Part shown: positions 7,429-9,647 of the stretch, one piece after another | Layout of the letters: every line of letters begins with the position of its first letter | Numbering within the stretch: the first letter of the stretch is position 1 | Assembly: GCA_050575255.1 (NCBI GenBank) | Contig: JBNZDD010013687.1 | Location: 599,024 to 663,023, forward strand | From: Harriotta raleighana | Lineage: Eukaryota | DNA: 64,000 nt | Direction of reading: 5' to 3' | Program-made: the position numbers and the translations under genes | The notes under the pieces: generated by a model | What the model was told of the DNA's origin: nothing | Seen by the model: only the letters and a program-made list of their open reading frames with translations | The model's database searches: none

Positions 7429-7916
7429 TCTACTTGTTCCTTGATTTCCTCCCCTTTCTTACACATTCTCACAGTCTCCCTTTTTAAGGCACAATTTAAA
7501 AAAAAAATGTTTTCGTGTTTCAATAATTTTGTTGAGATGATTTCAGTTTATTTTTTGGACTGGCAAATTATGTGCTGTGTTCTGTCATTAAAGGTTTACT
7601 CTGCTCGCGGGCTGATAGTTGGTGTCAGTAGGTGTGAGCAAAATGTACGCTGTTAAAACAGGGTTTATTGTATTTATCGTAGAAATTACAGCAACCTATG
7701 TGTTGCGTTTTGCCTCTCGGAGTTGACACTCAGTGAAGCCTGCATTGTTGTTCCGTTTCAGAACTACTTTCATTCATATGATTAATATGAATGGGCTTAA
7801 CGGAGTGAGATATATACCCACCTACCAGAATTCTGGCTTTATGTATATGTGGTGCTTTCGGTGCTGCTGCCAGCATGATCACACCTCTGGCTGCTCCAAT
7901 CAGGGCCTGAAATCTA

Positions 7917-8021
7917 TCAGTTCAGACGAAAGATCGTGGATCCGAAACGTTGACTCGCTTTCATTTCTCCATGGATGCTGCCTGACCTGCTGAGTTTTCC
8001 CAGCAACTTCTGTTTTTGTTT
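7917..8021 (+). mobile_element. ~105-bp Penelope-type mini element with hammerhead-ribozyme-like motif
   Basis: Flanked by the direct repeat ctgaaatcta (7907-7916, 8022-8031). Contains cagacga-a-agatc-gtg-gatcc-gaaac-gtt. Nearly identical second copy at 38746-38851 (-). Confidence 0.8.
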
Positions 8022-9647
8022 CTGAAATCTAACTTCCCAGTCATCTCCTCTTTCCAACCCAGTAATTAACAGCTGATGCAGCAGATGTATGTCACCAGTG
8101 TGAAACCATTTCCTGATGACACCTTCCTCAACAGCAACGCTCTACACTCTGGAAAAAACATCTTCAATTAAATAAAAAGTTTTAAAAGAAAATTGGATTT
8201 GGTGACTCCTAAAAACCGGCTGACAGGGTAGCCTGAGGGATTACGCAATTCAGTGCTTTTATTGGGAACGTCTGCTTCAAATATCCAGTATTCTGAGTGA
8301 TTATGTGGGATGAACTTTTCTAATCTCTAGTTGTGCTTAGGCCTATTTTGTTTGAAACTTGTGGCCTCTGAATCTGCTCTTGTGCATTTTATAATCTGGG
8401 CCTTATTTTTAAAGGGAGAGATGTGTCATCAAAGGGTTTCATGTCTTCTCTTGTGCATTCAGTATGAGAACACATGAACCCGCTTCATATGCCTTGTAAA
8501 TTTTCATAAGGTGCTTGGTATTCTGCAAATGTAACATTATCTTAATTTGTACATATTGCAAGAAAATGTAAGGATATCATTGCCAAACAAATGTCCCCTC
8601 CAAAATGGGATTTGTTTTCAGGACAAACTCTTTCATAAAGCAATTCCTACGAAAATCCAATAAATTGACCATGATTGTCTCGAATGCATTTCTAGTTTGG
8701 ATTTAAAATTTAGGGGACTTGATGACATCCAAACTAGAAGATACAGAGATAAGCTCAGTTAAGTGAAAAAACATTTGCTTTGAAAGCTGCCAAGTACATT
8801 AAAAAAAATTGCTTTGTTCTATTCTCAGTTTCCGTTTCACTGCTACACTGGCTGCATAGTACAACATACATCATATTTATATGTGCGTGTAGTGTTTTTT
8901 GTTTGTTTCAGATGTCTGGATTCTTTCCAAAGTTTCAGTTTTTAATGAAAGAGGTTTAATAGAAAAGGTGTACCAATTTCATTGCAATCCATGTGTGACA
9001 CAGCTGCTTAACAACATTAGTGCTGGATTGATGTTTTTGTTGCAGTGATTTATTTCTGGAAATTCTGTATCAAAAATGTAATGGTATAGTTTCTAATGAT
9101 AGAGTAGGACACTGAAACCCACAGTAAGTACATGGGAAGATTTAAGATGTCATAGGGAATGAGGATGATGGGATCAAGGCAGTATTCAGACCCTTGCAGA
9201 TGATATAAGAATGGTGGTGATCTGTGCTACTTAACATTTTCATGATTCTTAAGAAATAAAGAATACTTACAGATTCAGTTAGACTGTGACTGAATGGAAT
9301 TTGCAAACTATTAATTATCTTGAAATAAAAGGAAATAAAATGAGAAAGGAACAAGAGCCAAGCAGATATTTCAAAGTCCTTTAGATGTCTGGCCCAGTGG
9401 ATGTATGCTTAGATATGATCATCCCTTCTACTCCCATAAATTGTTTGTGGAAGGTGGCGGTGGTGGGTAGGAATTAATTTGTCTGAAGCAATGTTGCTGT
9501 TCCTTTAGTGCTCGCAGTCGAATATCATTTTTGGACTCTTGCTATTCTTGATGCCTTTTCTCTGTTAAATTGTAAAGACCGTCCCTCCTGTATTGGATGA
9601 ATTAGAACAGAGAGGCTTAAGGCACGGTCGATTATAATTACATACTG

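Follow-up and report, generated by a model that had tools for sequence, protein, structure and literature searches.

Minimal hammerhead ribozymes (min-HHRs) have been described in the Xena, Poseidon and Neptune Penelope-like elements (PLEs) of fish (PMC4209133). The same report lists thousands of single min-HHR motifs, considered 'probably related to truncated PLEs', and some of them form opposite-strand pairs. The min-HHRs in the pLTRs of PLEs were reported to cleave weakly and in a dimer-dependent manner (PMC4209133). The PLE PAc (Poseidon, Anolis carolinensis) was studied in vitro, where both strands were cut and extended and HHR cleavage was dispensable; two internal RT start sites bound its tail (PMC11167929). 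The non-LTR retrozymes are also related to PLEs. They are short, non-coding and carry a type I HHR (PMC7229834, bioRxiv 10.64898/2026.07.22.740005), and they are described as tandem repeats with an HHR of canonical type in each unit (PMC7229834).

The DNA analysed here, i.e., the window, is a stretch of 64,000 nucleotides from Harriotta raleighana. Two short copies of one repeat family were found in it. The identity of the first, copy 1, as a PLE stub is regarded as very likely. The fuller reading is held with good confidence: copy 1 would be the hammerhead-bearing pLTR end of an abundant PLE with RT and GIY-YIG domains, placed by one target-primed insertion by the protein of its parent. The copies differ from non-LTR retrozymes in being solo, TSD-flanked, of minimal type and colinear with a PLE end. 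The tandem units with an intact HHR in each, as in retrozymes, were not seen in the window copies, and in the family the nearest to retrozymes were deletion derivatives of at most two units.

The two copies in the window

The features are given below in window positions. Unit numbering takes 7917 as position 1.

7907..7916, + strand: left target-site duplication (TSD) of copy 1, 10 bp, exact repeat
7917..8021, + strand: copy 1, 105-bp pLTR stub of a probably Neptune-like Penelope element; it spans the unit between the hammerhead head and the inner (first) of the two 3' ends
7919..7955, + strand: decayed motif of a minimal type I hammerhead, with U4->A at 7924 and G10.1->A at 7931; the family core is found exactly at 303 places
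8022..8031, + strand: right TSD of copy 1, exact repeat; its first C is also the next base of the parent
38852..38865, - strand: 5'-side TSD of copy 2, 14 bp
38745..38851, - strand: copy 2, 107-bp stub of the same family as copy 1, with homology to the parent from about unit position 6-7
38731..38744, - strand: 3'-side TSD of copy 2, 14 bp with 1 mismatch

The 105-bp unit lay between exact 10-bp direct repeats (7907-7916 and 8022-8031), as had been annotated initially. At the lag of copy 1, an exact 10-mer repeat was present at 1 of 63,860 window positions, that of copy 1 itself, and at lags 107-123 such repeats were present at 5 window positions. It had been claimed that the two copies share their length and their 3' end and that each has its own TSD. 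The common 3' end was confirmed, and so were the separate TSDs, 10 bp and exact in copy 1, 14 bp with one mismatch in copy 2. The lengths are not the same, i.e., 105 and 107 bp, and the 5' junctions differ, so the argument from equal length fails.

The hammerhead parse proposed for copy 1, with its boxes, helices I and II, an extra A and a GUH-type cut layout, was correct. Helix I was placed at 7919-7922/7952-7955 (unit 3-6/36-39), the core box at 7923-7929 (unit 7-13) with U4->A at 7924, the extra A at 7930 (unit 14) and helix II at 7931-7935/7939-7943 (unit 15-19/23-27). The GAAA box at 7944-7947 (unit 28-31) is followed by CG and UU, and the predicted cut lies after 7951 (unit 35). The palindromic helix III stood in part; it is present, but the palindrome proper is the 4-mer ACGU, and the 6-mer takes in A14 and U17.

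The initial annotation had noted U4->A and a probably inactive ribozyme. Both hold, and a second lesion that it missed adds to the first. At the foot of helix II copy 1 has an A-C pair (G10.1->A at 7931), and because the family has G there in 87/91 arms, the conserved G10.1-C11.1 pair is broken in copy 1. The intact-hammerhead descriptor was failed by copy 1, its core and a helix II base pair not being intact, and its ribozyme is likely inactive. The stem II haplotype of copy 1 was found in only 2 places of the genome, so its changes look like private decay. Position 7917 is T in copy 1 and C in the long copies. In copy 2, G8 is changed to C and the 5' strand of helix I is absent, because the first 7 nt of the copy differ from the parent; this ribozyme too is likely inactive.

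In the proposed check with covariance models, Rfam returned no hammerhead match at the gathering threshold in the whole window or at E<=10 in 7700-8250. RNA folding of five stretches, including an intact copy, gave no significant z-scores. In the minimum free energy fold of the intact family copy, helices I and II formed and the core was mispaired. The motif thus rests on family-level sequence and not on fold energy.

Other repeats were also seen in the window. A dispersed repeat of about 310 bp (67-77% identity) was placed at 18123-18435, 31038-31352, 46754-47063, 50869-51173, 53457-53819, 39736-40044 and 57615-57914, with shorter pieces elsewhere. It has a tRNA-like head (Rfam tRNA at 51092-51162, 31281-31343 and 46757-46828), i.e., it is a tRNA-derived SINE family. 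Local direct duplications at 26419-26842 (215 bp, 98%) and 29709-29988 (129 bp, 97%) are possibly assembly artefacts, and the window contains 936 N. For a host gene, 150 of the 234 stop-free window frames of at least 62 aa were searched in Pfam, and none reached the cut-off.

The repeat family and its parent element

A genome DNA search with the unit gave 1,741 first-look candidates, of which 40 were scored; these are candidates and not copy numbers. A 32-mer from the 3' half of the unit had 1,130 exact matches genome-wide (control, 0), and the 303 exact matches of the family core were obtained with an intact 33-nt hammerhead core. The hammerhead descriptor recognized 19 intact motifs in 246 kb of unbiased loci and none in 1.23 Mb of five-fold shuffles.

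In the majority bases of 91 arms, the CUGANGA and GAAA boxes, UH and helices I and II were all present. The extra nucleotide between 9 and 10.1 was A14 in 89/91 arms. For the G10.1-C11.1 pair, the 87 arms with G correspond to G15, and C27 was kept in 72/91, with T in 18 (CpG decay). The palindromic 15.2-16.2 pair was represented by CG at 32-33 in 70-71 of 91 arms. Metazoan PLE min-HHRs (PMC4209133) are described with the same short helix I, unpaired base between 9 and 10.1, G10.1-C11.1 pair and palindromic 15.2-16.2 without loop 3. Unlike them, helix II here has 5 bp, and both window copies are core-mutated. Judged by sequence, the family-level motif is that of a PLE minimal type I hammerhead. 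The assignment of copy 1 to the Penelope-type minimal hammerheads was borne out. A more divergent subfamily of ten loci (L251-L260) had decayed hammerheads with nearly the same stems as the main family.

Some copies reached about 450 bp further upstream through a pyrimidine-rich 3'UTR. Thirty loci were found by this upstream 3'UTR, and in 29 of them it was directly followed by the unit or a part of it. The upstream frames showed a CX4CxxC linker and then VVY..YIG endonuclease motifs, and CX4CxxC was read in the translations of four loci (L032, L043, L072 and L182). A protein search of the genome with the parent ORF gave 150 scored matches, and 25 loci were fetched. The unit was found downstream in the same orientation at 20 of these, a 22-nt piece of it at 2 and none at 3.

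Many of the ORF-protein loci carried RT motifs; the match to PF00078 (E 1.6e-5) was below the Pfam cut-off. In the ESM Atlas, the endonuclease piece fell with eukaryotic GIY-YIG clusters (0.95; 203-207 shared features). Pfam search of four EN/linker frames gave no GIY-YIG at E<=0.1, another search gave E 0.22, and a PDB sequence search with the RT piece returned nothing relevant. RT followed by a C-terminal GIY-YIG in one ORF was found for the parent in broken copies. All ORF copies seen were broken, and none among the loci examined was full-length and intact.

The tail ran on into the ORF start in three loci (L208, L189 and L209), and in these and further ORF-start loci the pLTR stood in partial tandem with ORF-side sequence as its tail. 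The likely ATG of the parent ORF is about 40 nt past the tail. This layout, pLTR-tail-ORF, is that of an EN+ Penelope-like element. The parent is likely of the Neptune type, as suggested by its linker of the form CX2-5CxxC, which is shared by Neptune and Nematis (PMC8557442, PMC3846280). The clade thus differs from that of PAc by this linker motif, and the ORF of PAc starts inside the hammerhead (PMC11167929), unlike the likely ATG here. In the parent, unit 66-108 (window 7982-8021 and the next bases of the parent) contains CTGAC, similar to a branch point, and a T-rich tract with CAG at its end. This resembles a splice acceptor situated at the inner 3' end and before the likely ATG.

Ends, target sites and arrangement of the copies

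Of the 1,130 listed 32-mer matches, the first 100 served to tally copy ends and gave 97 distinct arms, or 96 after one at a contig end was dropped. This sample is unbiased for 5' ends because the 32-mer lies on the 3' side of the ribozyme. Independence of the arms is incomplete, i.e., three insertions were counted with both arms and several loci were duplicated with their flanks.

The 3' ends lay at 101-109 in 25 arms, at 134-150 in 48 and elsewhere in 23, and an extra tail of about 35 nt was carried by 48/96 arms. TSDs with a score of at least 9 were found for 42/96 arms, mostly of 11-16 bp, and for 0/96 shifted controls, which supports true retro-insertion. An adjacent inverted (head-to-head) arm was present in 58/96 arms, and 38/96 were solo. 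The 5' ends were inside 8-65 in 37 arms, at -4..+7 in 39 (15 of them solo) and further upstream in 20, which extend into the parent. Of the 59 arms reaching position 7, 39 end at the head (-4..+7); the flanking rates predict 4-5. Solo copies with both ends like copy 1 were 3/96, with 3 more by eye.

The initial annotation had argued that the unit is not random debris. This is supported by the 5' ends piled up at the ribozyme head and the 3' ends at two sites. It had also seen a distinct ribozyme-plus-tail element of fixed size, and had proposed to tabulate ends and TSDs genome-wide. In that tabulation the ends were non-random and TSDs common, but a fixed-size element did not emerge, as the ends vary, 58/96 arms are inverted, 20/96 extend upstream and 3/96 resemble copy 1. 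The unit is instead the pLTR end of a PLE of autonomous type.

The arrangement follows that described for EN+ PLEs (PMC8557442, PMC3846280), in which 5' truncation, partial tandems, an adjacent inverted 5'-truncated copy, TSDs and an optional one-end tail of 30-40 bp occur. The inverted 5'-truncated copy, the one-sided 30-40-bp tail and the TSD were all found in this family. Two differences were seen. Here the stop falls within the hammerhead's first ~45 nt in most arms, and the TSDs are mostly 11-16 bp, in contrast to 8-10 bp in the rotifer examples. The two clusters of 3' ends, 101-109 and 134-150, match the two RT starts of PAc. For PAc the cut site was described without RNA ends (PMC11167929), and here a 5' end at the predicted cleavage site was found in 1/96 arms.

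Shared flanks were also observed. The flanks of four loci (L090, L107, L113 and L144), each on a different contig, are homologous (78-86%), and all four represent one head-to-head insertion that was amplified as part of a larger repeat. The right flanks of six others (L007, L120, L131, L134, L137 and L183) belong to the same other short repeat, which has an ATT-rich tail. That several independent stubs share this flanking repeat points to a preferred site of insertion inside another mobile element.

Origin of the 5' boundary

A sample of 28 distinct loci was found with the ORF start, where the tail runs into the ORF and the unit is by structure the 5' pLTR. Nine of these began at 0-10, 4 upstream of -20 and 6 inside the unit or tail, and 9 had no upstream unit or had a gap. 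Internally deleted two-unit derivatives of about 280-750 bp, in which the ORF start is fused to a second hammerhead head, made up 13 of the 21 examined (L222, L225, L226, L227, L229, L231, L234, L235, L237, L240, L242, L245 and L246). The breakpoints of the deletion set ranged from 262 to 757, and each derivative had its own breakpoint, except three that share one at a 5-nt microhomology. The two-unit derivatives are possible intermediates towards retrozyme-like tandems.

A G stood directly before A3 in 5 of the 13 two-unit junctions, which suggested a cap-derived G. The sequence around A3 also fits the vertebrate Initiator consensus. A cap-derived G has been reported at full-length SVA and L1 insertions (PMC3287187). 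The first tests for the extra G were not significant (2/6 in the unbiased set; 8/20, P=0.11, in all loci). A fresh head sample was taken, i.e., 80 of the first 100 among 1,249 head-pattern matches, of which 78 were readable. Of these 78 intact heads, 41 extended upstream and 37 stopped at the head. At position 2, these 37 had C (24), G (8), A (3) or T (2). Because 24/37 have C at position 2, the boundary is at 2-3 and is not sharp. G was present in 8 of the 13 head-ending copies without C at this position (background 0.25, P=0.006), and the two unbiased extra-G sets pooled gave 10/19 (P=0.01). Position 1 was T in 20/37, where the parent has C (background 0.22, P=2e-5). Some templates read through the head, because 41/78 heads extend upstream and 4/28 ORF-start loci start upstream of -20. 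Among the sequencing runs, no RNA holder was listed, and the contigs of 3/5 small-share runs were mostly less than 90% alike and cannot show RNA ends. Position 41 was G in 42/130 short and 9/86 long arms (P=7e-5), in a set biased by the first search with copy 1; the skew could reflect a subfamily that made more stubs.

The short copies might form a distinct non-autonomous family, SINE- or retrozyme-like, with short ribozyme-plus-tail masters re-mobilised in trans by the PLE protein. This is considered improbable. Its preferred 5' boundary is real, but the 5' ends are ragged, there are two 3' ends and the junctions are private to each copy. Short forms greatly outnumber ORF-bearing ones (1,741 first-look candidates for the unit and 132 for the 5' ORF, which are not copy numbers), and position 41 is skewed between short and long arms; however, over positions 8-59 no other diagnostic position divides the two. 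Fixed ends with diagnostic variants apart from the parent, as of an independent SINE-like family, were not found. The partial tandems of about 280-750 bp could serve as non-autonomous sources, yet no array of at least three HHR units was present among the loci examined. The RNA of PAc is reported to need about 60 nt past the RT start (PMC11167929), which are absent from the solo stubs.

With a PLE origin accepted, the 5' pile-up could be a hotspot of RT stop or fold-back at the CAG-TT-CTG hairpin (positions 2-9) or at the edge of helix I. This is the main rival to the step of run-off from the RNA start, and it is judged rather unlikely. At several inverted junctions (L008, L009 and L171) the sequence is a palindrome about positions 5-6, but solo TSD-bounded copies (15/38) and direct tandem junctions (13/21) end here too. 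Many templates reach upstream (41/78), as such a hotspot allows, and T1-C2 of copy 1 fits a 2-nt fold-back; the extra G is left unexplained by a hairpin, and RT stalling would be expected on entering the stem from the 3' side and not at its 5' edge. Splicing or ribozyme cleavage is a very improbable origin of the boundary; the splice acceptor would be formed by a pyrimidine tract with CAG at positions 2-4. A stretch rich in pyrimidines and CAG do precede helix I, and the 3' end of the Penelope intron of D. virilis was mapped to helix I (PMC4209133). On the other side, the solo copies have no shared upstream exon, A3-G4 is kept in most junctions, and GT follows the breakpoint in the parent in only 1 of 20 readable deletion breakpoints, so the two-unit junctions are not splicing products. 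A cleavage product is opposed by the single arm in 96 with its 5' end at the cut site. Both origins were rejected on the exon, GT and cut-site counts.

For the 5' boundary we lean towards run-off at the RNA start. The 5' ends at the head, the near absence of ends at the cut site and the extra G together suggest run-off copying of uncleaved, capped RNA. Family membership, the parent ORF, the continuity from tail to ORF, the TSDs, the two 3' clusters, the 5' pile-up and the mutations of both copies were established directly, and the steps that may join them are as follows. The endonuclease would cut the target, giving TSDs mostly of 11-16 bp (10 bp at copy 1). The template would be uncleaved RNA, probably with a cap, and its 5' end would lie on the first base of helix I or beside it. 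RT would start internally at one of the two tail sites, by analogy with PAc in vitro, and from the tail near the RNA 5' end it would run off after about 105 or 140 nt. On reaching the RNA 5' end at position 2-3, it may add a cap-templated or fold-back base and one more; copy 1 begins T-C-A, which fits this scheme. Solo stubs such as copy 1 would come from one run-off cDNA. Head-to-head pairs would arise when both nicked strands are extended or the cDNA folds back, and an RT jump from the RNA end onto another RNA would give the two-unit derivatives. The ribozyme of copy 1 would be a passenger, decayed since insertion. Taken as a whole, the proposal that capped RNA of this Neptune-like family starts at the first helix I base, and that stubs, pairs and two-unit derivatives are run-off cDNAs from 5' tail sites, is put forward tentatively. 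If the G is cap-derived, it would favour a sense template over the antisense one proposed by Arkhipova et al. 2013 (PMC3846280).

The motif, the type of host element and the architecture of insertion are already known in print. In the literature covered, which was partial, no publication was found on a start at the ribozyme head or on a cap G in PLEs. Two findings are new here, each modest in sample size: the two-unit deletion derivatives, and the signature of G at position 2 and T at position 1. Copy 1 in itself matters little, since the stub is decayed and both its retroelement class and its ribozyme type are known. The end statistics of the family bear modestly on the template polarity, the transcription start and the in vivo use of hammerhead cleavage in PLEs, and on the origin of short HHR tandems from PLEs. 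If the capped-start reading is true, the stubs, pairs and two-unit derivatives would record in the genome where transcription starts and that the template is sense and uncleaved. They would also record jumps of RT from the 5' end of one RNA to another, which would lead directly from PLEs to retrozyme-like tandems.
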